Source: an uncultured Clostridia bacterium
GTDB taxonomy: Bacteria; Bacillota; Clostridia; TANB77; CAG-508
NCBI GenBank assembly: GCA_928721565.1
Contig: OV788638.1
Location: 1,484,850-1,548,849, forward strand
Direction of reading: 5' to 3'
DNA length: 64,000 bases
Shown one piece after another: positions 8,981-61,728 of this stretch. A program made the translations under genes and the position numbers. The first letter of the stretch is position 1. Every line of letters begins with the position of its first letter. The notes beneath the pieces are model-generated. The model had not been told where the DNA came from. It did not search any database and saw only the letters and a list, made by a program, of their open reading frames with translations.

Positions 8981-9096
8981 TTTTTCTTACCTCCTAAAAT
9001 TATACTAGAGGCTTCGAAACCTCCAGCAATATACCTTTGGTTTCCAAAAATATCTTTTAAATTATAGCATATATTTATGTAGAATGCAAATTAATA

Positions 9097-9693: not shown

Positions 9694-9695
9694 TT

Positions 9696-10489: not shown

Positions 10490-10525
10490 CCAAAAAAAAT
10501 CACAAAAGTCAAATGACTTTTGTGC
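10490..10525 (-). terminator. intrinsic terminator of clpB
   Basis: Stem CACAAAAGTCA/TGACTTTTGTG with a T8 run on the minus strand immediately after the clpB stop. Confidence 0.6.
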
Positions 10526-10538
10526 AAAGTTTCACATT

Positions 10539-13152: not shown

Positions 13153-13215
13153 TTGCACCGTTGGGACCGGTTCTCTTTTGTGCATTTGTTCATTTGGGAC
13201 CGGTTCTTATCGGTT
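13153..13215. repeat. tandem pair of the GGGACCGGTTC-core palindromic element (copies B1, B2) in the clpB 5' leader
   Basis: TGCACCGTTGGGACCGGTTCTCTTTTGTGCA and TTGTTCATTTGGGACCGGTTCTTATCGGTTC; core-to-core spacing 33 bp; located between the promoter and the RBS. Confidence 0.85.
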
Positions 13216-20902: not shown

Positions 20903-21268
20903 ATGTTTACGCGTAGATACCAAAAATGCCGTTGCATGAATAATAATGCATGTTGTAATACTGCTAATAACATGATTGAAGACAAATGTAATGATGTTTG
21001 CCCTTGTAATTATGAAATGAATGTTGCAGACGAATGTGAATGCGGATTTGACGAAGAATATGAAATGAGTGTTTTTCCAGGAAATCCAATGTTAGCTCAA
21101 AGTTATGTTCCTTGGCAATACATGGATAAAACTTTTAAACCTTGTGTAGGCTTAAAAATGGGAACAATCTTTCCAGAATTGGTAAGTCCTTATATGCCTT
21201 GCCAATCTATGAGAGTTAATGAATTCTTAGAAGCAACAAATACTATTGGAGAGGGGTGTAATAAATAA
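20903..21268 (+). CDS. cotJA: spore coat-associated protein CotJA-like
   Basis: RBS AAAGGAGGATTAAT. Cys-rich small protein with a PMLAQSYVPWQ motif, upstream of cotJB and cotJC. Confidence 0.6.
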   Translation: MFTRRYQKCRCMNNNACCNTANNMIEDKCNDVCPCNYEMNVADECECGFDEEYEMSVFPGNPMLAQSYVPWQYMDKTFKPCVGLKMGTIFPELVSPYMPCQSMRVNEFLEATNTIGEGCNK

Positions 21269-21594
21269 TGATAAATGATACAAATAGAAATTGCAATTGT
21301 ATGTGCAATATGAATTCTATGAACATGTCTTCTAATGCTGACTGCAGACCAACTAGAGAAGAAATGTTGCAAAATATCAAATGTTTAAATTTTGCTATAA
21401 TTGAATTAGGTCTTTATTTAGACACTCATCCTGATGATGAAAGAGCTCTTTGCTTACACAGAAAATATTGCAAAGAGTATCGAGAATTAACTGACAAATA
21501 TCAAAAAGTTTATGGGCCTTTAACAATCCAGTTCCCTTGCAATAAATGGAGATGGCTTGAAGAACCATGGCCTTGGGAAGGAGGAATTGTTTAA
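21268..21594 (+). CDS. cotJB: spore coat protein CotJB
   Basis: LNFAIIELGLYLDTHPDDERAL...YGPLT is the CotJB signature. Its start overlaps the cotJA stop. Confidence 0.75.
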   Translation: MINDTNRNCNCMCNMNSMNMSSNADCRPTREEMLQNIKCLNFAIIELGLYLDTHPDDERALCLHRKYCKEYRELTDKYQKVYGPLTIQFPCNKWRWLEEPWPWEGGIV

Positions 21595-22217
21595 TGTGGA
21601 CTTATAATAAAGTTTTAGAATATCCAATTAATATTAAATGCACAGACCCTCGTCTTGCAAAAGTTGTTATTAGTCAATACGGCGGACCTGATGGAGAGCT
21701 TGCCGCTTCTCTTAGATATTTATCTCAAAGATTTGGAATGCCTGATCAAAAAGCTAAAGCTATCTTAAATGATATAGGTACAGAAGAATTAGCCCATCTA
21801 GAAATGGTTGGTACTATTGTCCACCAATTAACTAAAAACGCCTCAATAGAAGAAATTGAAGCAGCTGGTTTAAGTGCATATTATACAGATCATGGGGTAG
21901 ATATATATCCACAATCAGCAGCAGGAGTACCTTTCTCTGCTAATTGCTTAGCATGCAAAGGTGATGCAATAGCTAATTTACAAGAGGATTTAGCAGCAGA
22001 ACAAAAAGCACGTGCAACCTATGAAAAATTAATAGATTTATGTAGAGATAATCCAGATGTCGTAGATCCTCTTCGCTTCTTACGTGAAAGAGAAGTTGTT
22101 CACTTCCAAAGATTTGGTGAAGCTTTAAGAGGTGTTCAGGATAAACTTGCTGAAAAGAAATTTTATATGAATGATGGAAGTTGTTTAGATATGCAACAAA
22201 GTAATTGTGATTGCTAA
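21594..22217 (+). CDS. cotJC: spore coat protein CotJC (manganese catalase family)
   Basis: MWTYNKVLEYPINIK...LRYLSQRFGMPD...EELAHLEMV shows the Mn-catalase/CotJC ferritin-like fold. Its start overlaps the cotJB stop. Confidence 0.8.
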   Translation: MWTYNKVLEYPINIKCTDPRLAKVVISQYGGPDGELAASLRYLSQRFGMPDQKAKAILNDIGTEELAHLEMVGTIVHQLTKNASIEEIEAAGLSAYYTDHGVDIYPQSAAGVPFSANCLACKGDAIANLQEDLAAEQKARATYEKLIDLCRDNPDVVDPLRFLREREVVHFQRFGEALRGVQDKLAEKKFYMNDGSCLDMQQSNCDC

Positions 22218-25960: not shown

Positions 25961-26350
25961 TCATTTTTTATTACTATTATTTCTTGGGAATAAACTTACT
26001 CTAAAATTTTTAAGTTTTAATTCTTCTATCAATTTCTTAACAATGCTAATATCTTTATAATAATTATAAAAAGTATTTACTGTTAAATCAGCAAGTTGAA
26101 TAGCATAATTAGTTTTAGAATCATAATATGTTATTTTAAAATCATCATCATATATACAAAATTCAGTCTTTAAATATGTTTCTAAATTATTCAATTCTCC
26201 AACTCTTATATTTCTATTATCAATACTTATAATAAATTCAATTGGTTCATTTATTTCTTGTAAATTTAATACTGGTAAAATACAATCTTGAATCAAAACT
26301 TTTACTGCATAATTAAAAAATATGTTCGAATCCACTATTTCTTTTCTCAT
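25961..26350 (-). CDS. hypothetical protein
   Basis: 129-aa ORF. Confidence 0.3.
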   Translation of the reverse strand: MRKEIVDSNIFFNYAVKVLIQDCILPVLNLQEINEPIEFIISIDNRNIRVGELNNLETYLKTEFCIYDDDFKITYYDSKTNYAIQLADLTVNTFYNYYKDISIVKKLIEELKLKNFRVSLFPRNNSNKK

Positions 26351-32953: not shown

Positions 32954-33019
32954 TTGCTCATTTGGGACCGGTTCTCTTTTGAGCAATTGTTCATTTAAGA
33001 ACCGGTCCCAAATGAGCAA
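32954..33019. repeat. pair of GGGACCGGTTC-core palindromic elements (copies C1, C2) in opposite orientation
   Basis: TTGCTCATTTGGGACCGGTTCTCTTTTGAGCAA and TTGTTCATTTAAGAACCGGTCCCAAATGAGCAA, between the AI-2E transporter gene stop and the start of the 32336..32893 gene. Confidence 0.85.
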
Positions 33020-36716: not shown

Positions 36717-38255
36717 ATGGAATCAAAAGAACTAATCTTAATTTTAGACTTTGGTGGACAATACAATCAATTAATCGCTCGTAGAGTAAGAGAATGTAAT
36801 GTATACTCTGAAGTTGTACCATTCAATATTTCAATAGAAAAAATAAAAGAAAAAAATCCAAAAGGAATAATATTCACAGGAGGACCTGCAAGTGTATATG
36901 GCGAAGATTCTCCAAAATGTGCTGACGGAATTTTTGAATTAGGAATTCCTGTACTTGGAATTTGTTATGGAATGCAATTAATGGCTCATACACTTGGTGG
37001 AAAAGTTGCCTCTGCAACAACAAGAGAATATGGAGAAACAAATGTAAATATAGATAACACTTCTCCTCTATTACAAGGATTTGAAAACACAAATGTATTT
37101 TTAATGAGTCATACAGACTATGTAGAGGAAGTACCACAGGGCTTCAAGAGAATTGGTTATACACCAGTTTGCCCAAATGCAGCAATGGAAAATCAAGAAA
37201 AAAATTTATATGGAATTCAATTCCATCCAGAAGTAAATAATTCAATAAACGGAACACAAGTTATCAAAAACTTTTTATATAATGTTTGTCACTGCTCAGG
37301 TGATTGGGTTATGTCATCATTTGTGGAAGATTCTATAAAATCTTTAAAAGAAAAAATCGGAGATAAAAAAGCCTTATGTGCTCTATCTGGTGGTGTTGAT
37401 TCATCTGTTGCAGCAGTACTTTTAAGTAAAGCTATTGGCAAAAATTTAACATGTATTTTTGTTGACCATGGATTACTTAGAAAAAATGAAGGTGACGAAG
37501 TTGAAAAAATATTTACAGAAAATTACGACTTGAATTTCATCAGAGTTGATGCTAAAGATAGATTTTTAAGTAAACTTGCTGGAGTTACTGATCCAGAACA
37601 AAAAAGAAAAATTATAGGTGAAGAATTCATCAGAGTGTTCGAAGCTGAAGCAAAGAAAATTGGAACTGTAGATTTTCTAGTTCAAGGAACTATCTACCCA
37701 GACGTTATCGAAAGTGGACTTGGAAAAAGTGCTGTGATCAAAAGCCATCATAATGTTGGAGGACTTCCTGATTATGTTGATTTTAAAGAGATCGTTGAAC
37801 CTTTAAGAAATTTATTTAAAGATGAAGTTCGTAAAACTGGTTTAGAACTTGGTATTCCAGAAAATCTAGTTTATAGACAACCATTCCCTGGTCCAGGTCT
37901 AGCAATTAGAGTTATTGGAGATATAACAGATGATAAGCTAACTATTTTAAAAGATGCAGATGCTATTTTTAGAGAAGAAATTGCTAATGCAGGATTACAC
38001 AAAAATATAAATCAATATTTTGCAGTTCTTACTAATTTAAAATCTGTAGGTGTTATGGGTGATGAAAGAACTTATGATTATACAGTCGCTTTAAGAGCTG
38101 TTGAAACTACTGATTTTATGACTGGTGTTTGGAGCAGAATTCCATATGAAGTTTTAGAAAAAGTTTCTAGTAGAATTGTTAATGAAGTTAAACATGTTAA
38201 TAGAGTAGTTTATGATATTACATCTAAACCACCAGCAACAATTGAATGGGAATAA
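36717..38255 (+). CDS. guaA: GMP synthase (glutamine-hydrolysing)
   Basis: Class-I glutamine amidotransferase domain (GICYGMQ) followed by an ATP-pyrophosphatase domain (SGGVDSSV) and a C-terminal dimerisation domain ending PATIEWE. RBS AAGGAGGATTTT. Confidence 0.92.
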
Positions 38256-38262
38256 AAAAATC

Positions 38263-38300
38263 AAGTTGTCAAAAGGTTCGTACCGATTGACAACTTTTTT
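38263..38300 (+). terminator. intrinsic terminator of guaA
   Basis: Stem AGTTGTCAA/TTGACAACT followed by T6. Confidence 0.7.
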
Positions 38301-38363
38301 GTTCATTTGGGACCGGTTCTTAAACGAACAATGTTCATTTGGGACCGGTTCTCTTTTGTGCAC
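38298..38363. repeat. tandem pair of GGGACCGGTTC-core palindromic elements (copies D1, D2)
   Basis: TTGTTCATTTGGGACCGGTTCTTAAACGAACAA and TGTTCATTTGGGACCGGTTCTCTTTTGTGCAC. They lie between the convergent 3' ends of guaA and the proline-rich protein gene. Core-to-core spacing 32 bp. Confidence 0.85.
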
Positions 38364-38370
38364 TTTTATT

Positions 38371-38832
38371 TTAATATGCTAATTCCCCATCTTCTAATGA
38401 AGAAAAATATTTAGGTGACTCATATATATCATTTTCTCCTCCTCTTGGTCTTGGAGGTCTTCCTGGTCCAGGTCCCATAGGTGGCCTCATTGGAGGACGA
38501 GGTGGTCTTGGTGGTGGAGGTCTAGGAGGTCTAAATCCTGGAAAACCTGGTCTTCCTAATAATTCTCTTAATAATAATATACGAATTATATCATTTAAAC
38601 CTGTGTTTCTTTGTCTATTATCACAATTTTGGCAATATCTATCTTCTTTATTTTTTTCTATTTTTCCAGTGTTTGTTGTTGTAGTTTTTGAATCTATTTT
38701 TGTAACTTCTGCCTCTCCTCTATCTTGTACCAATGCCCTATCTTCTACTGCAGAATAGATTTCATCTGTTAATCTATCTACTAGTTCTCTTGTAACCTCT
38801 CCTCTATTTTCTGCACATGCTTTTTGCACCAT
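38371..38832 (-). CDS. proline-rich low-complexity protein (possible spore coat/structural protein)
   Basis: C-terminal PGFPGFRPPRPPPPRPPRPPMRPPMGPGPGRPPRPRGG. The likely start is MVQKACAENRG; the ORF-track N-terminus overlaps the upstream gene. Confidence 0.45.
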   Translation of the reverse strand: MVQKACAENRGEVTRELVDRLTDEIYSAVEDRALVQDRGEAEVTKIDSKTTTTNTGKIEKNKEDRYCQNCDNRQRNTGLNDIIRILLLRELLGRPGFPGFRPPRPPPPRPPRPPMRPPMGPGPGRPPRPRGGENDIYESPKYFSSLEDGELAY

Positions 38833-38840
38833 AGGATATA

Positions 38841-39434
38841 CTATCTGGTTGATGACGAAGTAGAATGTTGGTTCCATTCAAAACCAAAATCACTTCTTTT
38901 TATTTTACACATTTCTCCATTTTCTCTATAAAAAACTATTCCTTCTATATAATGATTTCTAAGATACTCTTTTATTCCATCATAATCTCTTGGCACATTG
39001 TCCAATATCCTATTTCCATGTTTTTCTAAAATATCTTCATCTAAATTATATGGATTTCCATTTAAATGCTTTCCTATTAATTCATATGTTCCATCTTCTA
39101 AATTTTCATTTTTTTGTCTCTCAAATGCTTCCAATTGATATTTACTATTTAAATCATCTGGTACGCATAATATCCAATGTGGAAAATGTCCCGTTATTGA
39201 ATCAGCTTTTTCTTGGCAAGGAATTGCTCCCTTAGGTAATTTTCTACCTTTTTTGTAATCATATCTCCTATATATTTTTCCATCTTTTATCAAACAACAT
39301 GTACCATCTATTTTCTCTGTTGCCCAGCCCTCTCCATCTAATACCCATTTGCAGTCTGGTTCTACTTCATTTAAACATTTTGCTATTTTATGGTTTTCGA
39401 ATTGTCTTTTAAAAAGTGTTTTCATTTTCTTCAT
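38841..39434 (-). CDS. RNA ligase family protein (nucleotidyltransferase motif I KxDG)
   Basis: GWATEKIDGTCCLIK matches the KxDG adenylylation motif of ATP-dependent ligases. Its ~200-aa size fits stand-alone bacterial RNA_ligase-domain proteins. Confidence 0.5.
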   Translation of the reverse strand: MKKMKTLFKRQFENHKIAKCLNEVEPDCKWVLDGEGWATEKIDGTCCLIKDGKIYRRYDYKKGRKLPKGAIPCQEKADSITGHFPHWILCVPDDLNSKYQLEAFERQKNENLEDGTYELIGKHLNGNPYNLDEDILEKHGNRILDNVPRDYDGIKEYLRNHYIEGIVFYRENGEMCKIKRSDFGFEWNQHSTSSSTR

Positions 39435-39446
39435 CTAATTCACTTC

Positions 39447-40646
39447 CTATTCTAATAAAAAATCGATTAGATATTTAATCTTAATACCTTCTTCTGATGT
39501 ATTATTATATAATCTGTCCATTGTTATAACTGTTTTTTCATAATTATCTTTTATATTTTTTAGTACTCCAAGTTCACGTTTTTTCACATTGTCATCTAAC
39601 ATTGTATATGTCACTTGATAATATTTTTTATCATTTGGCTTTGTTGCTATAAAATCAACTTCTAAAGAATCATTTTTTCCAACAGTAACATCGTATCCTC
39701 GTCTTATTAATTCAAAATAAACTACGTTTTCTATAATATGTCCAAAATCTGAATCTCTAAATCCTAATGTAACATTTCTTATTCCAGTATCCACAATATA
39801 ATATTTTTCTAATGTTTTTAATATTTCTTTTCCTTTAATATCATATCTTGGAACTTTATATATGATATATGCATTTTCTAACATTTGCAAATAATTTAGA
39901 ACTGTATTATGTGTTATTTTTGTGCCTTGGCTTGTTAAAAAATCTGCAATTTTCTTTGAAGAAATTAAACTTCCAATATTACTCATTAAAAATCTCAAAA
40001 TTTTTTCAAGTAATATCGCATCTAATAACTTATTTCTTTCTACTACATCTTTCATAAATACTGTATTATATATACCTTTTATTGCATTTTCATATAGGTT
40101 TTCTTCATTTTTTATAGTTATAATTCCTGGCATACCACCGAATTTTATATATTCAATGAATTTATCTTCTAATGTTTTTTTATCTTCTAATACTGTAAAA
40201 TCTAAATATTCCTTGAAAGATAATGGTAATACTTTTATTTCAACATATCTTCCTGATAAATATGTTGACAACTCTGATGATAACAAATATGCATTTGAAC
40301 CTGTTATATAGATATCACTCTTAAAATCTACTATCATAGCATTTACAGCTTTTTCCCATTCTTCAATTCTTTGAACTTCATCTAGCAATATATAATTTGT
40401 CTTTGTTCTTATGATTCTTTTGCTTATTTTATTATACATATCTTTATAGTTAACAATGTCATCATATTCAAAAGATTCAAAATTCATATATATTACATTT
40501 GCATTTTTGTCTTCCTCTAATATTTTTTCCATAAAAAGTTTTAATAAACTCGATTTTCCACATCTTCTAATTCCTGTTATAACTTTTATAAATTCAGTAT
40601 CTTTATATGCTAATAATTTGTTCATATATATGTCTCTATTTACCAT
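39447..40646 (-). CDS. AAA+ ATPase with DUF4143 C-terminal domain
   Basis: Walker A GIRRCGKSSLL and Walker B ILLDEVQ; architecture typical of the AAA_14/DUF4143 family. Confidence 0.65.
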   Translation of the reverse strand: MVNRDIYMNKLLAYKDTEFIKVITGIRRCGKSSLLKLFMEKILEEDKNANVIYMNFESFEYDDIVNYKDMYNKISKRIIRTKTNYILLDEVQRIEEWEKAVNAMIVDFKSDIYITGSNAYLLSSELSTYLSGRYVEIKVLPLSFKEYLDFTVLEDKKTLEDKFIEYIKFGGMPGIITIKNEENLYENAIKGIYNTVFMKDVVERNKLLDAILLEKILRFLMSNIGSLISSKKIADFLTSQGTKITHNTVLNYLQMLENAYIIYKVPRYDIKGKEILKTLEKYYIVDTGIRNVTLGFRDSDFGHIIENVVYFELIRRGYDVTVGKNDSLEVDFIATKPNDKKYYQVTYTMLDDNVKKRELGVLKNIKDNYEKTVITMDRLYNNTSEEGIKIKYLIDFLLE

Positions 40647-40754
40647 TTTCTCTCATTCCTTTCTTTTTTATTATAAATATAGTATACAACACTGTTTATG
40701 TTTTGTCAAGTTTTGTTAATGTGTTAACAAAACTTTTATTTTTTATGTTTTTTG

Positions 40755-42296
40755 TTAGTGCTGCTGCTTTTTAAAATTAAAATACAAATCAACTTGTTTG
40801 TCTTGATGAATTTCAATTCTATTAATAATTACTTTCATAATCTCTGGAGTTGGTTTTTTTAATTCCAAAAATTCTCGTACAACATTTTTTATTTTTTCAG
40901 TCTTATTTTGTTTTGTTTCTTCTTTTTGTTTATTGATTTCTATATATTCGCTCTCTTTCTTTTTTATTTTTTCTTGCAATTTTTTTAATACTCTTTCATA
41001 CATTTTTTCACTTATTTTATTATTTAATTTATCTAAATACATTTTGTCAATATTATTATTTACCAATTTAATTTCATTTTCTAATTTTTGAAGTATTTTT
41101 TCATAATTGTATTTAATCATTCTGTTTTTTATGTTTAACTCAAGTCTTTCATTATCAATGTCTTTAAATAAACTTCTTATGTAATTAAGAATCGATTCTT
41201 CTAGGTTATTATAGCTAAATCCATGAGAAGTACAAAATCCTAATTTTGAGCTTCTTCGATAGTTATTACATACCATGTAATAACGTCCCTTTTTTTCTCC
41301 TCTTACGCCTATCTTATGTTTACATTCATAGCAAAATAGTAAGCCATCCAACAAAAATGTATTTTTCTTTTCATTTCTATTATAGCTCTGAACTATTATC
41401 ATTTTTTGTACAACCTCAAATACTTTTTTATCTATTATTGGTTCATGTGTATTTTCTACAGTTACCCATTTTTCTTCTGGATTTGGTCTAATTTTTCTAT
41501 TTTTGTAACTTATTCTACTTCTTTTATTCTGTACTGTTGTACCTATATAAACTTTATTCTTTAATATGTTTTTTACTGTTTTATTTTCCCAAAATGTTTC
41601 TTTATTGTATCTCGACTTATTGGCCGTTGGAATATCTCTATTATTTAAATAATCTCTTATTTCTCCAACTTGTTTTCCATTAGATGCCATATTAAAGATG
41701 TTTCTTACAATTTGAGCTTCTGGTTCATAAATTATTAGTTTATTTTTATCATTTATATCTTTTGTGTATCCAAGTGGCGTTTTTCCTCCTACCCATTTTC
41801 CTTGTTTTTGCATTGTGTGCATTGCTGTCCTAATTTTCTTTGATAAGTCTTTCGAATACATATCATTTAATATTGACTTAAATGGAGCAATATCATTATT
41901 ACCATTTGATGCTTCAAAAGTATCTATTCCATCTGTTACTGAAACATATCTTACATTATTTTCTGGAAACCATTTTTCTATATATTCTCCTGTTTCTATA
42001 TAGTCACGTCCTAGACGAGATAAATCTTTTGTTACAACCATATTAATTTTCCCGTTTTCAATATCTCTTACCATTCTTTGAAAATCCGGTCTATTAAAAT
42101 TTGTCCCAGTAAAACCCTGATCAATATATGTATCTATTAATTGGTACTTACCTCCTAATTTTTGCACATATTCTGTTAGTAATGTTCTTTGATTTTTTAT
42201 ACTTTCACTTTCATTATAACCTCTGTCTACATCTTCTTTTGATAACCTTATATAAATTGCTACTTTGTAAATTGTTTTCTCTATCTGTTCAAGCAT
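40755..42296 (-). mobile_element. large serine recombinase (resolvase/invertase catalytic domain + recombinase domain + zinc ribbon)
   Basis: N-terminus VAIYIRLSKEDVDRGYNESESIKNQR (catalytic Ser); central recombinase domain; CxxC...C region (CYECKH...CNNYRR); C-terminal coiled coil. 513 aa. Confidence 0.8.
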
Positions 42297-42596
42297 TTTT
42301 CCTCCCTTATAGGCTTAAGATATTAATTATTAAATGTTTTATTAATTCTTCTAATTCTTCACCTTCTTTATCGAAGTACATATTAATTTTGAAAGTTTCA
42401 CTCATATTAACTCACTCTCCCTATACTATATATACATCCGTTTTCTTATAAAAATTCTCTTTCATAATGAATTTGTTTATTTTTAAATATGTTCACATCT
42501 GCTTATAAATAGTTTAAGGGTAGTTATGTGACAGCTCTCGCTATCGCACATCTACCCTAGTTAATAAAATGAGTTTCAAATATTTTCTTTATTCTA

Positions 42597-43430
42597 TCAT
42601 ATACTTTGCCAATAATAATATAAAATATTTTTGTCAACATCATAAACACCTATTTCACAACCTGTTGCTTCTTCTTTTGTAAAATTATGTTTTTTGTTTT
42701 CATCACTTGTTCTACATACTAATTCATAATGATAGTATCCATTTTTTATCTCAAGCACTTCTTTGTTATATTCAAAATCATCTAATATACTATCATCAAG
42801 TCTATCTTTACTCCATTTTGAATTAACATCTAGACTTTTTATTATATCCTGTCCACTTTCTTTCGAAAATTCATATACATAATAATCTAATCCATCATAT
42901 TGAATTCCTTCCCTTACACTATAAATTTCTCTTTTGATATAGTTTTCAGTTTTCACCCCTAAAATATTACTATAATTATTATGAGATCCATAAAGATAAC
43001 TTTTTAAATAATATAATTTTTCATTTTTTAAATCAAATATAGCATAAATTCCTTTATTATTATAATAGTATAAATCTTCTCTATCTATCGCTATCATATC
43101 ATTATCAACTATTTCATAAAATCTTATCATCTCATATTCGTAAAATTTTTCTTTGCTCCAATAACTACTTTCCTCTAACTTTCTTCTAAACTCTTCTTTT
43201 TCTCCAAACATATTTAATTTATATACCGTATACTTCTGTAAAGGATCATCTTTATATACAATATAGTAGTTTATATTATACGAACTTAACTCTAAGTTTA
43301 ATTTTTTATATTCTTCATCCACATTAAAAGTTACTTTTGATATAAATATATAAATAATCAAAAATATTGTAATTCCTACTAATGGTATAAATGCAAATTC
43401 CTTCAAATTTTTTCTCTTCAATTTGAACAC
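42597..43430 (-). CDS. hypothetical membrane-anchored protein
   Basis: 277 aa with an N-terminal TM helix (FAFIPLVGITIFLIIYIFI) and a Tyr/Asn-rich ectodomain. It is translationally coupled to the upstream gene by a 12-bp gap. Confidence 0.4.
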   Translation of the reverse strand: MFKLKRKNLKEFAFIPLVGITIFLIIYIFISKVTFNVDEEYKKLNLELSSYNINYYIVYKDDPLQKYTVYKLNMFGEKEEFRRKLEESSYWSKEKFYEYEMIRFYEIVDNDMIAIDREDLYYYNNKGIYAIFDLKNEKLYYLKSYLYGSHNNYSNILGVKTENYIKREIYSVREGIQYDGLDYYVYEFSKESGQDIIKSLDVNSKWSKDRLDDSILDDFEYNKEVLEIKNGYYHYELVCRTSDENKKHNFTKEEATGCEIGVYDVDKNILYYYWQSI

Positions 43431-43442
43431 CGTCCTATAACA

Positions 43443-44519
43443 TTAAAATTCTCCTTCTTTTGTTTTAAATTTTATTTTAACATCATATGTTTTTATAACT
43501 CCATATTCACTTGAGGCTACTCCTAAATTATTTAATGTAGTAGATATAATATCCTTTAATTTTCCATCTTCTTCATCTGCATATTCCCTTAAATCTTTGA
43601 AATCAGTAAAATCATAAGTATCTTTAATTTCAATTTCTAAATTCCACTTATTATTTTCATCTTTTATTGCTTTAACTAATAATGTTGCATCATGGAGAGC
43701 ATAAAGTAAATCTGCATCATCAAATCTAATCAATGTGTCCTCCCTTGGAGATTTTTCGTCAATAATAAATTCATTTTTCTCTTTTCCGTATTTTTCTATT
43801 AATTGTTTTAACTTTTTCTTGAATATTGGACTTTCAAGTAATGTTTTTTTTATTTTTTCATCCTCTATCACTAAATCACTTGGTTCTTTTCCAAATAAAG
43901 TCAATGAATTTGTCAATAATTTAGCAGAAAGTGGTTTATTAGTAAATAACCCTCCTATAACAACAATTTGCCAAAATTCATACTGCATTGAATAAAATAT
44001 AGCATATGATATTGGATTGATTTTTTTAGTTACATCAAATATAAAACTCAAGCTTTTTATAAAGCTTTCTGCAACCTTTTCATCTACTTCTTGCCAATTT
44101 ATATTTTGAGAATCTTTTATAAGTTTCTGAAACTTTTGGTAATAATTAAATAACTTATATACATCATTTAATGAAAAAGAAATTGTCTCTGACATATCTC
44201 TTCTTGAGAAAACTGATATATTATCTATATATCTTGAAATTCTTTCCACGATTTCATTTAAAGCTTCATAGTCCATCTTATTCAAATAATTTAATTCTAT
44301 ATATTTTTGTGTTAAATCATATTTCTTATTTTTGCTTAAGAAATATTTGTGATTTTTCCAAGCAATTCTATTACATAAATATGATTCTTTATTCCATACA
44401 AATCTTGGTGGTTTACGTATTCCTAATTCTTCATAAATATTATCAAGGCATCCTCTTCCAAACATTGCATATTTATAGTTGTATGTTTTATTACATAACA
44501 AGCATCTCTTTTCTTCCAT
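43443..44519 (-). CDS. hypothetical protein with an N-terminal CxxC...C zinc-ribbon-like motif
   Basis: 358 aa starting MEEKRCLLCNKTYNYKYAMFGRGC. Confidence 0.4.
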   Translation of the reverse strand: MEEKRCLLCNKTYNYKYAMFGRGCLDNIYEELGIRKPPRFVWNKESYLCNRIAWKNHKYFLSKNKKYDLTQKYIELNYLNKMDYEALNEIVERISRYIDNISVFSRRDMSETISFSLNDVYKLFNYYQKFQKLIKDSQNINWQEVDEKVAESFIKSLSFIFDVTKKINPISYAIFYSMQYEFWQIVVIGGLFTNKPLSAKLLTNSLTLFGKEPSDLVIEDEKIKKTLLESPIFKKKLKQLIEKYGKEKNEFIIDEKSPREDTLIRFDDADLLYALHDATLLVKAIKDENNKWNLEIEIKDTYDFTDFKDLREYADEEDGKLKDIISTTLNNLGVASSEYGVIKTYDVKIKFKTKEGEF

Positions 44520-44805
44520 AATATATCAGTCCCCTTTTTTACTTTATTTTCACTAATATAATAAGGATCATATTAGTTATCATATTTATATCATAACATC
44601 TAATTTTTTTCCATCATCTGCAGTTAACGAGCGTTTCTCAGTAACTAAATTTCATTTAATTCATTATCTTAATAAATAACTTGTCTCTTTTCCAAACGAA
44701 GATAATAATTACCAAATTTTATTTATTTTATATCAAACATTTGTTTTTGTCAATAGTCAAAAAAAATAAATTTCAAACTCTGAAATTTAACTATTTATAT
44801 TAAAT

Positions 44806-45141
44806 TCAAATTTTTTTATCCCGCATACTGTCTATTTTTAAATCTACCTTCTGGTATATCTCTGGATAGCACTTCTCTAATTCTTGAATTTGTATATTAC
44901 TCATTGCTGTCATCGGCCTTGCAGACATAGATTGCATATTTTGATTTTGCATTGGCATCATATTATTCATCATTTGCATTCCTTGATTTTGCATATGCGC
45001 CATTACAGGTACTGCATCATAACTTGAATAATTGTCATAACTATTATAGTTATATGTATCTTGATAATTATTCATTGGTTGATAACCTAATACACTTCTC
45101 ATATAATCTTCATATAATGAATCATTCATCTTAAATTCCAT
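44806..45141 (-). CDS. small Q/N/M-rich low-complexity protein
   Basis: 111 aa with a YDNYSSYD...MQNQGMQMMNNMMPMQNQNMQSM stretch; RBS AAAGAAAGGA. The repeat pair lies upstream. Confidence 0.45.
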   Translation of the reverse strand: MEFKMNDSLYEDYMRSVLGYQPMNNYQDTYNYNSYDNYSSYDAVPVMAHMQNQGMQMMNNMMPMQNQNMQSMSARPMTAMSNIQIQELEKCYPEIYQKVDLKIDSMRDKKI

Positions 45142-45194
45142 TCCTTTCTTTTAAAATTCATAATACATTATATGTTTTAATCTATTTTATGTGC

Positions 45195-45268
45195 GCAAAA
45201 ATGCACAAAACAGAACCGGTCCCAAATGAACATTGTTCATTTAAGAACCGGTCCTAAATGTACCAAAT
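45195..45268. repeat. tandem pair of GGGACCGGTTC-core palindromic elements (copies E1, E2) in the opposite orientation to pair D; E2 is slightly degenerate (GGACC with T)
   Basis: GTGCGCAAAAATGCACAAAACAGAACCGGTCCCAAATGAACA and TTGTTCATTTAAGAACCGGTCCTAAATGTACC, between the murD stop and the Q/N/M-rich gene. Confidence 0.8.
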
Positions 45269-45273
45269 TTACC

Positions 45274-46680
45274 TTAAAATTTCATAACCATATCCTTAAA
45301 TTGGTCTCCTCTGTCATACATATCTTTAAACATATCAAAACTTGTGCTAGCAGGTGAAAATAAAACAATTTGGCCTGGCTTAGCGACTCTTTTAGCCAAT
45401 TGCATACTTTGTTCAAATGTCTCACACATATGAATATCCATTTTCTTATGTTGATGTTCTAATTCATTCTTAACAGCTTCATAAATTTTATTTGCTGTTT
45501 GACCAATTAAAATTAAGCATTCTACATTATCTACTATTGGCTTTCCTATTGGTGTATAATCTAAATTCTTGTCAGCCCCACCAGCAATTAATACAATTTC
45601 TCTATCTTTAAATGCATTTAATGCTGAAATTCCTCTAGTTGGACTTGTACTTGCAGAATCATTATACCACTCTACTCCATCAACTGTACGTACATATTCT
45701 TGTCTGTGATGTACTCCAACAAATTGTTTTATTGTTTCTGCTGCATCATCTGTATCTACAAGCCCCTTTGTTAAGGCTAATACTGTACATGCATTTTGGA
45801 AATTATGCATTCCTTTTAGCTTCATATCTTTAGTATCTAATATATGTCTTCTTATTCCTTCATTACATTCTTTGATTATTCCATCTTCGTCAACAATAAA
45901 TCCATTCTCAAGCTTTTGTTTACTACTAAACATTATTACTTTTCCATTTGCTTCATCTTTGCATGAATCTGTAATTTCATTGTCAGCATTTAAAACTAAT
46001 ATACCATTTTCATTTTGATATTTAAAAATATTTTTCTTTGCATCTATATATTCTTGGTAATCTTTATGTACATTCAAATGATTTGGTGTAATGTTTGTTA
46101 TTGCTGCAATATCTGGACTAATTTGCATATTCATTAATTGAAAACTGCTTAATTCTAATACAATTATATCTTCTGGTTTTATTTCATTTAATTTTGTGAA
46201 TAGTGGTATTCCTATATTTCCACCTACATGAACTGTATATCCTGCATTTTTTAGAACTTCAGCAGTCAATGTTGTTGTTGTTGTTTTTCCGTCACTACCT
46301 GTAATTCCTATAATTTTGCAAGGCGCTAATTTCATTAATTGTTCAATTTCAGTTGTAACTATTGCTCCTTTGTTTGCTTCTTCAACTAATTCTGGCTTAG
46401 TTGGTAAACAACTTGGTGATCTAAATATTAAATCAAATCCTTTTAAATTTTCTAGATTTCCAGCTCCTAAATATTTTTTAAATCCATATGATTTAATTTT
46501 ACTTATAATTTCTTTATTTAGTTTTTCCTCTTCTCTGTCATCAAATACTGATACATCTGCATGCTTACTATAAAGATAGTCTATCAATGGTATATTACTA
46601 ACACCAAGCCCTATTACTGCTATTTTTTGATTTGGTAACATTTCTTCAAATTTTTCTAATTTTTTATTTTTAAATTCCAA
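45274..46680 (-). CDS. murD: UDP-N-acetylmuramoyl-L-alanine--D-glutamate ligase
   Basis: N-terminal Rossmann fold IAVIGLGVSN and Mur ligase central P-loop GITGSDGKTTTT. 468 aa. Confidence 0.88.
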   Translation of the reverse strand: MEFKNKKLEKFEEMLPNQKIAVIGLGVSNIPLIDYLYSKHADVSVFDDREEEKLNKEIISKIKSYGFKKYLGAGNLENLKGFDLIFRSPSCLPTKPELVEEANKGAIVTTEIEQLMKLAPCKIIGITGSDGKTTTTTLTAEVLKNAGYTVHVGGNIGIPLFTKLNEIKPEDIIVLELSSFQLMNMQISPDIAAITNITPNHLNVHKDYQEYIDAKKNIFKYQNENGILVLNADNEITDSCKDEANGKVIMFSSKQKLENGFIVDEDGIIKECNEGIRRHILDTKDMKLKGMHNFQNACTVLALTKGLVDTDDAAETIKQFVGVHHRQEYVRTVDGVEWYNDSASTSPTRGISALNAFKDREIVLIAGGADKNLDYTPIGKPIVDNVECLILIGQTANKIYEAVKNELEHQHKKMDIHMCETFEQSMQLAKRVAKPGQIVLFSPASTSFDMFKDMYDRGDQFKDMVMKF

Positions 46681-50012: not shown

Positions 50013-50075
50013 GGTTCATTTGGGACCGGTTCTTAAATGAACAATGTTCATTTGGGACCGGTTCTTAAATGAACA
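50013..50075. repeat. tandem pair of near-perfect GGGACCGGTTC-core palindromic elements (copies F1, F2) in the clpP 5' leader
   Basis: TGGTTCATTTGGGACCGGTTCTTAAATGAACA and ATGTTCATTTGGGACCGGTTCTTAAATGAACA; 32-bp spacing; they end 15 bp from the clpP start codon, adjacent to the RBS. Confidence 0.9.
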
Positions 50076-56331: not shown

Positions 56332-56616
56332 TTGTTCCTCCCTTCTATACAAAATGTACCCTTACTTATTTTATTTATCTATATGTTTCATTTCGAGCAT
56401 CAGCTATAGTTCTAGTTGTATTTATTTTTTCTTCTCTATATTCTCGTCAGCTTTCCTAACAGCTTCTCTATATGCTTCATTATTTACTTCATCTATTGAA
56501 ATCTTTCTGCTAGATTTTTTTACTTTTTCATATATAGCTTGACTTGCTCTTATACTTTCTAAAAATCCTTGCGAGTTTGATTATTATTTGACATGTTACT
56601 CATATCCTTTCAATAT

Positions 56617-58677
56617 CTATCTCTTAATTTCTTCCATAATATAAGCTTCAATAATATCTCCTTCTTTGATATCATTGTATTTTTCAATTTGGATACCACA
56701 TTCATATCCTTTAGCAACTTCTTTAGCATCATCTTTAAATCTCTTTAATGATGCAAGTTTACCATCATGTATAACAACATTATCACGTAATACTCTAACT
56801 CCTGCATTTCTTTCAAGTTTTCCATCTAATACATATGCACCTGCAATTGTTCCAACATTTGATATTTTAAATGTTTGTCTAACTTCTGCATTTCCTATTA
56901 TATGTTCTTCATATTTTGGTGCAAGCATACCTTTCATAGCAGATTCTACATCTTCTATTGCTTGGTATATTACAGAATATTGTTTTATTTCTACTTCTTC
57001 TTTTTCTGCCATACTCTTTTGCATTTGGCATTGGACGTACATTAAATGCTATTATTATTGCATTTGAAACTTTTGCAAGTGTTACATCTGATTCTGTAAC
57101 AGCTCCTGCAGCAGCATGAATTACTTTTACTTTTACTTCTTCATTTGCTAATTTTTCCATTGATTGTTTTATTGCTTCAACAGATCCTTGAACATCTGCT
57201 TTTACAATTAAGTTAAGTACTTTTAAGTCTCCTGCTTCCATTTGACTAAATAAATTATCTAATGTTACTTTGCTCATAGCATTTATTGCATTTTCTCTTT
57301 CTTGACGTTTTCTCTTTTCTATTAAGTGTTTAGCTGTTTTTTCATCTTTTACTTCATAGAATATATCTCCAGCTTGTGGAACTTCTGTTAATCCCATTAT
57401 TTCTACTGGTGTAGATGGTCCGGCTTTTTTTACTTTTTTACCTTTTTCATCTGTCATACTTCTTATTCTACCTATTGATGAACCTACAACTATTGTATCT
57501 CCAACATCAAGTGTTCCTCTTTGTACAAGCATTGATGCAATTGCACCTCTTCCTTTATCAAGTCTTGCTTCTATTACTACACCTTTTGCTTGTTTATTTG
57601 GATTTGCTTTTAATTCTAATACATCAGCTTCTAATAATACCATTTCTAATAATTGATCTATATTTTCATGTTTTTTAGCTGAAATTGGCACAAATATTGT
57701 GTCTCCACCCCATTCTTCTGGTACTAATTCATATGCCATTAATTCTTGTTTTACTTTATCAATATTTGCATCTGGTAAATCAATTTTGTTTATAGCAACT
57801 ATTATAGGAATTCCAGCTGATTTAGCATGATTTATAGCTTCTACTGTTTGTGGCATTACACCATCATTTGCTGCAACAACTAATATTGCTATATCTGTTA
57901 TTTGAGCTCCTCTTGCTCTCATTGCTGTAAATGCTTCGTGTCCTGGTGTATCTAAGAATGTAATTTCTCTATCATTTACTTTTACTTTATATGCACCTAT
58001 ATGTTGTGTAATTCCTCCAGCTTCGCCTTCGATTACATTTGTTTGTCTTAACTGCATCTAATAATGATGTTTTACCATGATCTACGTGTCCCATTACAAC
58101 TACTACTGGTGGACGTACTTCTAAGTCTTCTTCTCTATCTTCAGAATCATCAAATAAAATGTCTTCTTCTGTTATTGTTTCCTTTTTGTTTACTTTTACT
58201 CCAAATTCATCAGCAATTAATGAAGCTGTATCAAAATCAATCTCATTATTGATTGTTGCCATTACACCATATCCAAGTAATTTCTTTGATTACTTCTGCA
58301 GTTGTTTTCTTTAATTCAGCTGCAAAATCTTTTACTGTTATTGTTTCAGGAATTGTTATTTCTTCTAATTTAAAGATTTTTTGTTTATTACGATTTTCAT
58401 CATTTTTGCTTACTTTTTTCTTTCCTTTTTTACCTCTTTGTGTTGTTAAATCATAATAATCTAACATTCCACCGTCTTGGTCATCAAACATATTAGATAA
58501 GCTATCTGTTCTTTTTAAGCCTTTTAATTTATGTTCATTAATTTCACCACTTTGATTGTTTCTTCTTGATTTACTTGATTTTTTATTCTTATTATCGTCA
58601 AATCTGCTATTTTGTTTTTGTTTATCTATTGATTTGCTTATATTCTCTTGCATGTTCTTTTTCGACATTTTCAGCAC
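56617..58677 (-). CDS. infB: translation initiation factor IF-2, reading frame broken by at least 3 frameshifts. The N-terminal region continues to ~59.3 kb with the frame lost.
   Basis: G-domain [24 protein letters not shown] and a C-terminal beta-barrel are distributed over four overlapping ORF fragments (56617..57042, 56909..58057, 57987..58262, 58246..58677). Confidence 0.8.
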
Positions 58678-59662
58678 CCATTATATCTTTGATATTTTTT
58701 TCAATTCCTTTTCATCTAATGGTCTATTTCCACCATATCTTGATTTCCATCCAAATCTTGGATTTCCACCTTGTCTATTTCTATTATCAAATCTTCACCA
58801 TTATTGATTTTGGTCTATTTTTATCAAATCTAGGTCTATTTCCATTGTTTGAGAATTTCTTCAAAATTACGATTTCCATTGTTGTTGATTTCTATCATTG
58901 TTAAATCTATTTTATTTTGGAAATTCTATTTTGATTATTATTTCTAAATGATTATTTTGCCATCTCTATTGTTTTGCTTAAATTCTATTACTGTTTATTC
59001 TTTATTGGATTAGACATTTTGATTTTTTTTTCTGCGAACTTAACCTTGTTTTCTTTTTCATTCTATATTCTTCTTTTTTCATTTCAACATCCATTTTATT
59101 TTCTTTTACTTCTACCTTTTCTTCAACTTTTTGAGTCAACTACATCTCTTCCTTCTTTTTTCTACTTCTTTTTTGATTCCAAATAATTCATCAACTGTCA
59201 TTGGCTTAGATGGTTTATTTCTATAAACAATATTATAATCTTTATTCTTTTCTTTCAACAAATCCTACATTATTATTTTTCTTTTCTTCTTTTTTATTTT
59301 CTTCTTGTGGCTTGTTATTTCATCATTTATTATAACTTCTCTTCTTATAATAACTGGTGTATCATTGTTTTCTGTTTTGTTTTTTCAACATTTGGCTTTC
59401 TTTTCTTCCGGTTTTTTATTAGTTTTCTTAGCATTTTCTTTAATTTTTTCTGCCTCATCTTCATCAACTGAACTCAAATGGCTTTTTGCATTTATGTTCA
59501 ACTTCTCTAGCAATTTCTAATACTTCTTTACTGGTTAAGTTCAATTCCTTTGCTATATCATATAATTTTATCTTACCCAATAACATCACCCCCTGCTTTA
59601 TTTTCTCATACTATTTTCTTATTTCGTCATATATCTCATCATCTATCTTAATATCTAGTGCT

Positions 59663-59860
59663 TTATCTAGTTTTCTTGCTTTTCTTTAGCCTTTTCAAAG
59701 CACTCCATATCATAAACAAATATAAGCCCCACGGCCTGGTTCTCTTCCATTCTGCATCTACTTTAATAATATTTTCTTTATTTTTAACTATTCTTAAAAG
59801 TTCATTTTTGTTTTTCTGTTTTCTACACACTGTACATGTTCTTTGTGGTATATTTTTCAC
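59663..59860 (-). CDS. ylxR: YlxR-like (DUF448) protein, C-terminus frameshifted
   Basis: MKNIPQRTCTVCRKQKNKNELLRIV is the typical DUF448 start. The downstream sequence loses frame. Confidence 0.55.
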   Translation of the reverse strand: MKNIPQRTCTVCRKQKNKNELLRIVKNKENIIKVDAEWKRTRPWGLYLFMIWSALKRLKKSKKTR

Positions 59861-59891
59861 TATTTCCTCCTAGTTTTATTCATTTTATTCT

Positions 59892-60997
59892 TCAGATCTC
59901 TTCATCAGTAGTATTCATCTGCTCTTCTGCCTTTTTTGCTAACATCTCTCTAAATTGTGATTCTGATTTTATATCTATTTTCCATCCTGTTAATTTTGCT
60001 GCTAATCTTGCATTTTGACCAGCTTTTCCTATTGCTAATGATAATTGGTCATCTGGAACTATTACTTGTGCAAATTTTTCTTCTTCTTTTATATCAACTG
60101 CCATAATTTGTGCTGGTAATAATGCTGATGATATAAATATACTTGGATCTGCATTCCATTCAATTACATCTATTTTTTCTCCATGTAATTCATTTATTAC
60201 ATTTTGAATACGAATTCCTTTTTGTCCTACACATGAACCTACTGGGTCTATGTTTTCATCTGGTGAATATACTGCAACTTTACTTCTTAATCCCGGATCT
60301 CTTGATACACTTTTTATTTCAATTAATCCTTCATATATTTCAGGAATTTCAAATTCTAGTAGTTTTCTTACAAAGTCTGGATGTGTTCTTGATATTATAG
60401 CTTGTGGAACACCTTTTTCTCCTCTTTCAACATCAACTACATATCCTTTTATTTTGTCATTTACATGATAATGCTCTCTGTTGGAATTTGGTCTTTTGCT
60501 AACATTATTCCTTCAAGCTTTCCTAAATCCATAACTACAATGTGTTTATCAGCTTTTTGAATTAGTCCAGAAACTATTTCTCCTTTTCTTTCATTATATT
60601 CATTAAATACCATATTTCTTTCTGTTTCTCTTAATTTTTGAATTATTACTTGTTTTGCTGTTTGTGCTGCTATTCTTCCAAAATCTCTAGGTACTATTTC
60701 TACTTCAACACTATCTCCTAAATTTAATTCTTTGTTAATTTTTCTTGCATCTTCTAAACTAATTTCTAATGCATCATCATTTGCTCTTTCCATTACTTCT
60801 TTTATTGAAAAAACATGTGTTGCTCCTGTTTGTTCATCCATTTTTACATCTACATTTTCTAATGCATCAAAATTTCTTTTATATGCTGTTATTAATGCTG
60901 TTCTTATTGATTCTAATAATTCCTCTTTTTTTATTCCTTTTTCTTTTTCTAGTTCTTCTAATGCTAATATTAATTCTTTGTTATCAATTGCTTTCAT
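59892..60997 (-). CDS. nusA: transcription termination/antitermination factor NusA, interrupted by frameshifts in 60105-60460
   Basis: N-terminal domain ORF 60461..60997 ([21 protein letters not shown]...) and C-terminal KH-domain ORF 59892..60104 ([23 protein letters not shown]). Confidence 0.8.
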
Positions 60998-61152
60998 TTT
61001 TTATAATCAATCCTTTCTTTTCTCTCAAATTAATTTATCAATTTTCTTTTATGAAATGTCAAATTAATTTTGATCATCCAACGTCGAAAATTATTTTACA
61101 TTCATAAATTCTATATTAATTTTCCTATCAGTTTTTATTGCTATTTTTTTCT

Positions 61153-61554
61153 TCAATTACTTTCAATTGTTATTGTTTCTTCGTCAAATCCTTTTAATTC
61201 TCCAATATAATTCTTGTTTCCGTTTTCATCTTTTTTAAATAGTTTAGCTTCAACTTGACTTCCTATATTTTGTGCTAAATGGCTATCTTTTCTTAAGACT
61301 CTTTCAATTCCTGGTGATGAAACCTCTAAGAAATATTGTTCTTTAATGTAGTCTAGCTTCATCTAATAACATCATTAATCTCATTGCTTACTTTTTCGCA
61401 GTCATTTAAATCGATTCCGTTTGGGCTGTCAATATAATATTCTTAAATAATAATTTGGTCCTTCTTTGGCATATTCTACATCATATAGGCTGTATCCTAT
61501 ATTCTCTATTTTGCTCTTTTAGTAGTTCTTCTACCCTTTCTTCTATTTTTGCCA
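61153..61554 (-). CDS. rimP: ribosome maturation factor RimP, N-terminal half frameshifted
   Basis: The C-terminal ORF 61153..61362 is RimP-like. The start MAKIEE... with RBS AGAGGAGGAC is at ~61554, but the frame is lost between. Confidence 0.6.
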
Positions 61555-61728
61555 TATAGTCCTCCTCTTTCTTTTATTCTCCTCATTCACGATTGAAGAG
61601 TAGGATTTGCTCCTACTCTTCTGCGTTTTTTTATGTTCTTTTATATTATACCCAATTTTTGCCATAAAATCAAGGGTTTTAAAGAATTTTTTATGTATTT
61701 TTCCATTTATAAATATTTTTATTTCATT

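Follow-up and report, generated by a model that had tools for sequence, protein, structure and literature searches.

The subject of this report is a locus in a 64,000-nucleotide stretch of DNA from an uncultured Clostridia bacterium (contig OV788638.1, positions 1,484,850 to 1,548,849; the whole stretch is referred to below as the window), at which an inserted element of 6,006 bp, carrying the gene for a large serine recombinase (LSR), divides a conserved gene of the host. We refer to this host gene as X. It lies between guaA and a murD-like gene and is bracketed by two pairs of intergenic repeats, D and E. The first-pass annotation of the window had taken the repeat pairs for the possible inverted terminal repeats of a cassette of ~6.9 kb containing seven genes, or for sites or insertion hotspots used by the recombinase, and had kept a coincidental association with a dispersed element as its fallback. 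All of the comparisons described here are based on metagenome assemblies. The features of the locus, with the element shown as a single unit, are:

36717-38255, plus strand: guaA (GMP synthase), host flank (Pfam GATase and GMP_synt_C; the same protein occurs in the relatives L001 and L002)
38263-38296, plus strand: terminator-like hairpin of guaA, followed by a T run (-15.7 kcal/mol, z = -5.0)
38298-38363, plus strand: repeat pair D, two units with the core GGGACCGGTTC, outside of the mobile element
38371-38849, minus strand: 3' part of X (codons ~98-250, from IVYPMVQKAC to the Pro-rich tail)
38850-44855, minus strand: inserted element, 6,006 bp, GC content 24.8%, with all of its genes co-oriented with X
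44856-45141, minus strand: 5' part of X (ending in ELEKCYPEIYQ)
45167-45192, minus strand: sigma-K-type promoter match for X, AC-N16-CATATAAT, kept in ~20 orthologous loci
45195-45268, minus strand: repeat pair E, two units of the pair-D family, inverted relative to D, outside of the mobile element
45274-46680, minus strand: murD-like Mur ligase, host flank (Pfam Mur_ligase_M, Mur_ligase_C and MurD-like_N)

The boundaries of the insertion are defined by comparison with L001, a 129-kb metagenome contig that was found by an exact-protein look-up of GuaA; corresponding look-ups of MurD and of the recombinase (the window translation and P0121) returned no record. The GuaA of L001 is identical to that of the window, its DNA is ~98% identical, and its gene order is guaA, pair D, a single intact X of 250 aa, pair E and murD. 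Collinearity between L001 and the window extends to 38849 and resumes at 44842, and the window therefore corresponds to L001 plus 6,006 bp inside X. The sequence TCTGGT is present at both junctions. Deletion of 38850-44855 in silico yields an in-frame open reading frame (ORF) that matches X of L001 at 247 of its 250 positions. The inserted DNA is lower in GC than the remainder of the window (24.8% as compared to 28.7%), and neither L001 nor any of at least 10 related species has it. We consider it very probable that 38850-44855 is a 6.0-kb integrative element of non-phage type, which was inserted site-specifically into X, between murD and guaA, by its own LSR.

These boundaries alter the reading of several ORFs at the locus. 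The ORF called at 38371-38877 as a "Pro-rich protein" is the 3' part of X extended by 9-10 codons from the element, and the one called at 44806-45141 as a "Q/N/M-rich protein" is the 5' part of X followed by 14 element-derived codons and a stop. Five of the seven genes counted originally are therefore genes of the element, to which a conserved ORF of 32 aa can be added, and the other two are halves of one host gene. Similarly, the block of 6.9 kb does contain recently mobile DNA with a serine recombinase, as had been proposed, but the mobile unit within it is the 6,006 bp at 38850-44855.

X belongs to a conserved, unnamed family of more than 1,000 homologues, with the motifs MNDSLYEEYMRSVLGYQP, CYPEIYxIVYPMVQKAC and LIRILLLRELLGRPGFPG, followed by a Pro-rich tail. 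The protein is of low complexity, rich in Tyr and Pro and mostly disordered, and its AlphaFold model is poor (pLDDT 54). Profile searches of Pfam, NCBIfam, PHROG and the PDB returned no match for X, and look-ups of its protein clusters gave no informative names. Both halves of X in the window are free of stops and frameshifts. The order murD-X-guaA with an intact X exists in L003-L007, L019, L026, L027, L036, L058 and L061, and X follows murD in many more distant species as well.

The recombinase, its attachment sites and the gene content of the element

Read along the orientation of X, the element encodes a 358-aa protein, a 277-aa protein, a hairpin, a 32-aa ORF, the LSR, an ATPase of the AAA_14/DUF4143 type and a protein of the RLIG1 type:

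43443-44519, minus strand: 358-aa protein with an N-terminal CxxC...C motif, truncated in sister elements
42597-43430, minus strand: protein of 277 aa, N-terminal membrane helix, encoded by a core gene of the element family (262 homologues, all unnamed)
42517-42558, minus strand: terminator-like hairpin 3' of the 277-aa gene (-25 kcal/mol, z = -4.6; conserved in L076 and L077)
42307-42405, minus strand: small acidic ORF of 32 aa, MSETFKINMYFDKEGEELEELIKHLIINILSL, directly 5' of the recombinase gene (conserved in L076, L077, L079, L083 and L099)
40755-42296, minus strand: LSR of 513 aa (Pfam Resolvase, Recombinase and Zn_ribbon_recom; PHROG 95 integrase, 4e-103)
39447-40646, minus strand: AAA_14/DUF4143 ATPase of 399 aa, cargo (Pfam; PADLOC PDLC04787, i.e. 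PDC-S01, 5.5e-157)
38841-39434, minus strand: RNA-ligase-like protein of 197 aa, cargo (Pfam RLIG1, 1.8e-13; PHROG 14301 "RNA ligase", 1.6e-63)

The 513-aa protein had been recognized correctly as a large serine recombinase in the first-pass annotation, and its Pfam matches bear this out (PF00239, 5.6e-23; PF07508, 8.5e-26; PF13408, 3.3e-11). Its Ser19, in the sequence YIRLSKED, aligns with the serine of YTRVST in the TP901-1 integrase, which we take to be the catalytic Ser12 of that protein, and with the serine of ERLSRDD in TnpX. Among solved structures the closest is SprA of SPbeta (9dxh), with which residues 10-474 can be aligned at E = 9e-26, including the region past the zinc ribbon. No integrase more than 41% identical to the recombinase was detected in the phage collection that was searched, and its scores fall below the NCBIfam equivalog cut-offs for CcrC and CcrB (120 and 102 bits, cut-off 900) and for XisF (98 bits, cut-off 375). 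Relatives number in the thousands in gut metagenomes, where one identical protein is encoded on a contig of 1.55 Mb. In its catalytic domain, its C-terminal domains and the form of its attachment (att) sites the protein conforms to the LSRs, and it is predicted to catalyse recombination between attP and attB.

Recombinases that are 78-90% identical to that of the window reside in small elements (4.3-4.8 kb or larger in L077-L088 and L099-L102) that split other genes in gut Clostridia. In L076-L088 the divided gene encodes a ZupT-like Zip transporter and is split at the codons for HDIPEG or HNIPEG, and in L099-L102 it encodes an ABC ATPase, split between THDIS and EA of the H-loop. Excision of these sister elements in silico restores a ZupT-like Zip protein of 252 aa and an ABC ATPase of 279 aa, respectively. 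The gene order of the elements in L099-L102 is circularly permuted, which implies that attP lies elsewhere on their circle. A comparison of the recombinase of the window with that of the Zip type yields identities of 98% for the catalytic domain, 84% for the recombinase domain, 75% for the zinc ribbon and 71% for the C-terminal region; a drop in identity that is concentrated in the last three of these regions fits a change of target. The recombinase P0158 was found on more than 250 contigs, and the element family is very common in human-gut Clostridia.

The anatomy of the att sites can be read from five filled loci in the three target genes. Every P arm ends in ATCAACCA-GA, the P' arms read (A/T)GGT(A/T)GAT, and an outer motif, CTGTCTA/TAGACAG, is present; in L099 the arms form the perfect palindrome ATCAACCA-GA-TGGTTGAT. 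The corresponding sequences for the element in X are:

38844-38849: junction core TCTGGT (ACCAGA in the orientation of the recombinase), of the form P-GA-B', with the probable crossover TC at 38844-38845
44850-44855: second junction core TCTGGT, of the form B-GA-P', with the probable crossover TC at 44850-44851
attB in X: near-palindrome GATATACCA-GA-TAGTATATC, with arms that match at 8 of 9 positions, coding for EIYQIVY of X
attP (proposed): ..CATTCTACTTCGTCATCAACCA-GA-AGGTAGATTTAAAAATAGACAG..
attB context: GAGATATACCAGATAGTATATCC
attP context: GTCATCAACCAGAAGGTAGATTT

The crossover dinucleotide is most likely GA (TC on the plus strand), an assignment that agrees with the best centre of symmetry, found independently. 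Integration would thus proceed by attP x attB recombination at this central dinucleotide, and its product would be the 5' half of X, the element and the 3' half of X, with all of the genes of the element co-oriented with X. The reverse reaction, between attL and attR, would need a directionality factor. Excision by this route would restore X exactly.

The first-pass annotation had pointed to the area near 42470-42560 as one in which to map att-like inverted repeats. What lies there is the conserved hairpin 3' of the 277-aa gene. We rejected this hairpin as an att site on the evidence of L099, where a T run (TTTT) follows it in terminator-like fashion and the att core is found a little farther on. 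The hairpin is kept in L099 as well as in L076 and L077, with changes in the stem that appear, by eye, to be compensatory (C-G to U-A and U.G to U-A). It is probably a terminator or attenuator located 5' of the small ORF and the recombinase gene.

Two genes alone are common to all of the variants of the element examined, namely the LSR gene and, beside it, the small acidic ORF of 32-44 aa, and the small ORF is for this reason the best candidate directionality factor. Most of the variants also have the 277-aa gene. Its product has no family match in searches of Pfam, NCBIfam, PHROG and PADLOC, and a Foldseek search of the PDB with its model (pLDDT 78) gave nothing below E = 0.04, with TM scores under 0.35. 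The 358-aa gene is probably dispensable, since it is truncated in some of the sister elements. The cargo differs from one variant to another and can consist of RhuM, of CYTH, NUDIX and kinase genes, or of ATPases. In the window, the PDC-S01 profile matches the ATPase over its full length (residues 1-399), PDC-S01 being a candidate defence system only, and the final codons of the RNA-ligase-like gene run through the att core. Judging by these profile matches, the ATPase and the RNA-ligase-like protein look like defence or counter-defence functions.

No phage structural, replication or lysis genes were detected in the element, from which only the integrase and the RNA ligase have matches in PHROG. 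Likewise, searches of its ORFs against Pfam and NCBIfam revealed no relaxase, oriT, coupling protein or type IV secretion system. No relative of the element was found in IMG/VR, and a plasmid search returned partial matches only, each covering at most 15% of the element and most of them to ATPase genes.

Horizontal transfer, possible excision and the host gene

A MurD scan that used one genome per species places the host among uncultured human-gut Clostridia known from metagenome-assembled genomes, such as "Clostridium sp. 28_12". Two contigs, L002 and L098, represent further filled alleles of the type seen in the window, and the copy of the element in L098 is 99.3% identical to that of the window. 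In L008, whose MurD is 85% identical, a 3.3-kb version of the element divides X at the codon used in the window. This version (L008 3763-7111; also in L090-L097) is fixed in X in that species; it lacks the recombinase and carries genes for an AAA_21 (PtuA/AriA-like) ATPase, an AAA_14/DUF4143 (PDC-S01) protein and RLIG1. The window and the L008-type species share a segment of 1.9 kb with the AAA_14 and RLIG genes at 97.9% identity. The host genes around it are far less similar (murD 85%, guaA 92% and X 82% identical), and it follows that the element has moved horizontally between species.

Two of these contigs have peculiarities that should be recorded here. The 6.5-kb contig L098 (ERZ27287375 k141_227067) contains X with the element and breaks 22 bp from the 5' junction, a position at which a branch in the assembly graph would be expected if the sample contained the filled form side by side with an empty or excised one. 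In L002 (1-1521), guaA and the filled X are as in the window but other DNA lies 5' of guaA (corresponding to the window 5' of 36639): where the window has a 134-aa ORF, L002 has a CTP_transf_like gene and a gene for 168 aa. This difference may reflect a second rearrangement breakpoint or an assembly join.

Several points weigh against the integrative-element interpretation or limit it. The central dinucleotide and the arms of the att sites were assigned by comparison, and the role suggested for the small ORF was derived from its conservation and position. An exact-pattern scan for ATCAACCAGAAGGTAGATTT in assembled contigs revealed no excised circle or attP junction (no viral and one metagenome match), so that activity of the copy in the window is unproven; the lone match was discounted as a chance stretch coding for YQPEGRFG in an rfbF-like gene for a sugar nucleotidyltransferase-like protein. 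The recombinase-less derivative of the L008 type has been recovered from at least 8 independent samples, with both halves of X still open, and at least some copies must therefore be immobile. Finally, in L076 (ERZ27287024 k141_1800355, 5067-12682), a single element joins a 5' fragment of the Zip gene on its left to a 3' fragment of X on its right, where pair-D-type repeats and guaA follow before the contig ends. This contig is either a chimeric assembly through two copies of the element or the result of a recombinase-mediated rearrangement between a Zip::element and an X::element locus.

An extension of the integrative-element interpretation, which does not contradict it, would place the element among the sporulation-coupled gene-intervening elements, such as skin, SPbeta, vfbin, gin and yin. 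According to this proposal, X is a late, sigma-K-dependent gene of the spore envelope, the element is excised in the terminally differentiating mother cell, where X is thereby rebuilt, and read-through from the promoter of X drives expression of the co-oriented small ORF and recombinase gene. The host lineage has sporulation genes, as can be concluded from the cotJA-cotJB-cotJC (Mn-catalase) spore-coat operon of the window (20903-22217, plus strand; preceded by the sigma-K-type match AC-N16-CATATTAT) and from the presence of Coat_F, SspH and SpoIIE in relatives. The motif AC-N16/17-CATATAAT is located ~40-60 nt 5' of the start of X in ~20 orthologous loci whose surrounding spacers otherwise diverge, and of the upstream regions of 50 genes in the window, those of cotJA and X are the only two that contain a sigma-K-type match. 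The consensus for sigma-K of C. difficile has AC at -35 and CATATAAT at -10 (PMC3789822), and the match at X is equal to it. Together with the low-complexity, Tyr- and Pro-rich and mostly disordered nature of its product, these matches make it plausible that X is a late mother-cell gene associated with the spore.

The same proposal gains from the structural kinship of the recombinase to SprA of SPbeta, from the restoration of the ORF of X by excision in silico, and from the precedent of gin as an intervening element of non-phage type (PMC5595907). No terminator-like site was found between the promoter of X and the recombinase gene, and the genes of the element are co-oriented with the split host gene in all three types of target; read-through control of the element from a host promoter is possible on these grounds. 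Scans for sigma-70 promoters and terminators over 38000-45400 performed no better than on shuffled sequence. On the other hand, X matches no known family in the Pfam, NCBIfam, PHROG and PDB searches, no match of the sigma-E or sigma-K type occurs 5' of the recombinase gene or the small ORF, and CATATAAT includes a perfect -10 hexamer for sigma-A. The sister elements, marked by recombinases of 78-85% identity and by the conserved 277-aa gene, split genes for a ZupT-like transporter and an ABC ATPase, and to our knowledge neither of these is a sporulation gene. The frequency of the recombinase-less copy in one species would mean that loss of X is tolerated or that recombinase is supplied in trans, and the failure to find an excised form in assembled contigs counts against the proposal as well.

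We regard the inclusion of the element among the sporulation-coupled intervening elements as a possibility that is rather unlikely, and an excision that is coupled to sporulation or to demand as similarly unlikely. A general form of the latter, in which read-through from the promoter of any host gene that is turned on would express the small ORF and recombinase and thereby excise the element from that gene, is rather unlikely. The dN/dS ratios of the split X in the L008-type species (0.11-0.15) equal those of intact orthologues; we rejected them as evidence of maintained function because the element arrived there recently, as indicated by its 98% identity between hosts.

It can also be imagined that the insertion is dead and domesticated, i.e. 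that the element is immobile here, X is permanently inactive and the cargo is retained for defence. The wide occurrence of a recombinase-less derivative in one species, the lack of an excised form among assembled viral and metagenome contigs and the matches of the cargo to candidate defence families all lend themselves to such a view. It is made improbable by the state of the copy in the window, which retains an intact recombinase gene, an intact small ORF and two intact att arms, and in which the halves of X have acquired neither stops nor frameshifts. GuaA is identical in the window and L002, where X is filled, and in L001, where it is empty, which we read as the mark of one species, and L098 adds another filled allele. 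Moreover, copies of the element in hosts that have diverged by 8-18% are themselves 97.9-99.3% identical, which speaks for recent mobility.

The palindromic repeats and other features of the window

The family of repeats to which pairs D and E belong was counted in the 64-kb window only, by scanning for a 20-nt unit at up to 3 mismatches with 100 shuffles as a control. The unit TGTTCATTTGGGACCGGTTC has 10 matches in the window, as compared to none in the shuffles, and the core GRACCGGTYC has 11, as compared to an expected 0.01. The copies of TGTTCATTTGGGACCGGTTC that constitute the two pairs are:

38300-38319 and 38332-38351, plus strand: pair D
45213-45232 and 45245-45264, minus strand: pair E

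Each unit is an imperfect palindrome of ~32 nt, and the pairs fold as hairpins of -15 to -44 kcal/mol. There are six intergenic repeat loci in the window, at 2834, 13164/13197, 32965/32999, 38310/38342 (D), 45213/45245 (E) and 50023/50055. The 11-nt core GGGACCGGTTC is invariant (it was noted at 2834, 13164-13206, 32955-33018 and 50013-50064, and also in L003-L006 and L026) and the arms (TGTTCA, TGCACA, TGCTCA, TGCGGTGCA) vary between loci. Copy number and orientation vary as well, both between loci and between close relatives, with three units in L004 and an inverted pair in L005, for example. The family is absent where the MurD of a species is no more than 85% identical. A search of Rfam at the gathering threshold returned two tRNAs only and no match to the repeats or the element.

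The placement of the pairs had been described accurately from the start. Pair D directly follows the terminator-like hairpin of guaA at 38263-38296 and its U run, pair E lies beside the murD stop (45274), between it and the next gene, and the two are mutually inverted, with the units of D on the plus strand and those of E on the minus strand. Their opposite orientation around a recombinase gene is what recommended them as ends of a cassette of 6.9 kb, or as sites or hotspots used by the recombinase, and such roles must now be regarded as very improbable. The element ends ~490 bp inside pair D and ~360 bp inside pair E, at junctions (38849/38850 and 44855/44856) that fall within coding sequence. 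Repeat pairs with GGACCGGTTC stand on either side of an intact X in the empty-site genomes L001, L003, L004, L006 and L026, whereas the L008-type species, in which an element occupies the same codon of X, has no GGACCGGTTC repeats at all. The sister elements in the Zip and ABC genes share the ATCAACCA-GA att arms, which are unrelated to the repeat, and 4 of the 6 repeat loci of the window adjoin no mobile gene, an outcome that the first-pass annotation had itself named, as the second of two conditions, as one that would speak against its proposal. Since the empty-site alleles keep both pairs and the filled site of L008 has none, the repeats are neither the ends of the element nor the sites of its recombinase, and both of these roles are refuted. 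An empty allele, which had been expected to carry a single copy of the repeat, does exist in L001, but with two repeat pairs.

Pairs D and E are bystanders, lineage-specific palindromic intergenic repeats that had no part in the insertion, and the fallback of a coincidence with a dispersed element was the correct reading. They resemble repetitive extragenic palindromic (REP) sequences, bacterial interspersed mosaic elements (BIMEs) and miniature inverted-repeat transposable elements (MITEs) in being short (~32 nt), imperfectly palindromic, exclusively intergenic and able to form stable hairpins, and in occurring singly or in tandem or inverted pairs, with a lineage-specific distribution and variable copy number. 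They differ from such repeats in having no known partner transposase or binding protein, and their combination of an invariant core, GGGACCGGTTC, with varying arms could equally mean that they are binding sites for a protein. Their sequences are compatible with either a REP/MITE-like repeat or a protein-binding site.

The notion that the 6-kb block is ancestral and was deleted from L001 and other relatives is a formal possibility that is scarcely conceivable, since such a deletion would have had to create, in frame, a gene that is conserved at full length in more than 1,000 homologues and is intact in the same synteny in at least 20 species, a distribution that contradicts it, and since the block has a lower GC content and an integrase with att arms.

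Some features elsewhere in the window also merit a record. The infB/nusA region (56600-63100) looks broken: IF-2 is called at 382 aa, there are overlapping ORFs at 56617-57042 and 58246-58677, NusA_N is found in a 178-aa ORF, and no ORFs of 100 aa or more exist across 58.7-60.4 kb and 61.0-62.4 kb, all of which suggests frameshift errors in the assembly or an unusual gene structure. A cell-surface cluster with sortase, cohesin, cadherin-like and Big_2/dockerin domains occupies 894-5842. A gene for a YhcG/DUF1016 PDDEXK nuclease and a DUF3800 gene, at 14241-15317 and 25961-26350, may be further accessory or defence genes.

Relationship to known elements and significance

The prophages and prophage remnants skin, SPbeta, vfbin and yin are tens of kb in size. 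The element in X has no phage genes other than its integrase-type recombinase and the RNA-ligase-like gene. It has in common with them that an LSR splits a gene, which in the known cases is a gene of the mother cell and is paired with a directionality factor, that SprA is its closest solved structural relative, and that the insertion lies within a coding sequence which is restored precisely upon excision, here in silico (skin, SpoIVCA in sigK; SPbeta, SprA/SprB in spsM; vfbin; yin of C. botulinum in yabG; PMC4191935, PMC5499854, PMC5025042, PMC10747680). The gin element of Bacillus cereus ATCC 10987 (GirC/GirX) is a gene-intervening element in gerE that is not a prophage; it measures 28.6 kb and has three recombinases, its target is a proven regulator of sporulation, and its sporulation-specific excision has been demonstrated (PMC5595907). 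Like gin, the element of the window is of non-phage type, carries an LSR and interrupts a short coding sequence in a spore former, where a short common core is flanked by inverted repeats that are imperfect. The divided gene would be rebuilt by excision, for which a small accessory factor is to be expected. It differs from gin in its size of 6.0 kb, in its single recombinase, in a target that is known from sequence alone, and in having close relatives that target genes not known in sporulation.

With LSR-bearing elements in general, among them TP901-1, Bxb1, phiC31, Tn4451 with its TnpX and the staphylococcal cassette chromosome (SCC) elements with their Ccr proteins, the element shares the domain architecture of the recombinase and its aligned N-terminal serine. 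The att sites of ~40-50 bp, the inner and outer inverted motifs around a 2-bp crossover and the unidirectional integration of these systems would also apply to the element in the window, as far as its sequence allows a prediction. It stands apart from them in that its recombinase is outside of the curated CcrB, CcrC and XisF families, in the absence of transposon ends, in its unusually small size, and in the use of at least 3 different coding-sequence targets by closely related recombinases.

The immediate consequence of these comparisons is a corrected annotation, in which a single conserved gene takes the place of two "unknown proteins" and the limits of the mobile unit, together with its att sites, are defined to the base. 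Beyond this, the element represents a family of mini-elements, previously undescribed, that is very common in Clostridia of the human gut; within it, recombinases that are 78-90% identical have been retargeted to at least 3 coding sequences by changes concentrated in their DNA-binding domains. Three pairs of attP and attB sites can be read directly, and they provide raw material for work on the specificity of serine integrases and for integrase toolkits.

If the genes of the element should prove to be switched on by demand for the host gene, then the element in the window would be a sporulation-coupled intervening element that carries defence genes, in an uncultured lineage of gut Clostridia with small genomes, and its recombinase-less copies might be rescued in trans by sibling elements. 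We know of no smaller sporulation-coupled element than this one would be. If excision is indeed coupled to sporulation, the range of the gene-intervening elements would extend to the uncultured spore formers of the gut.

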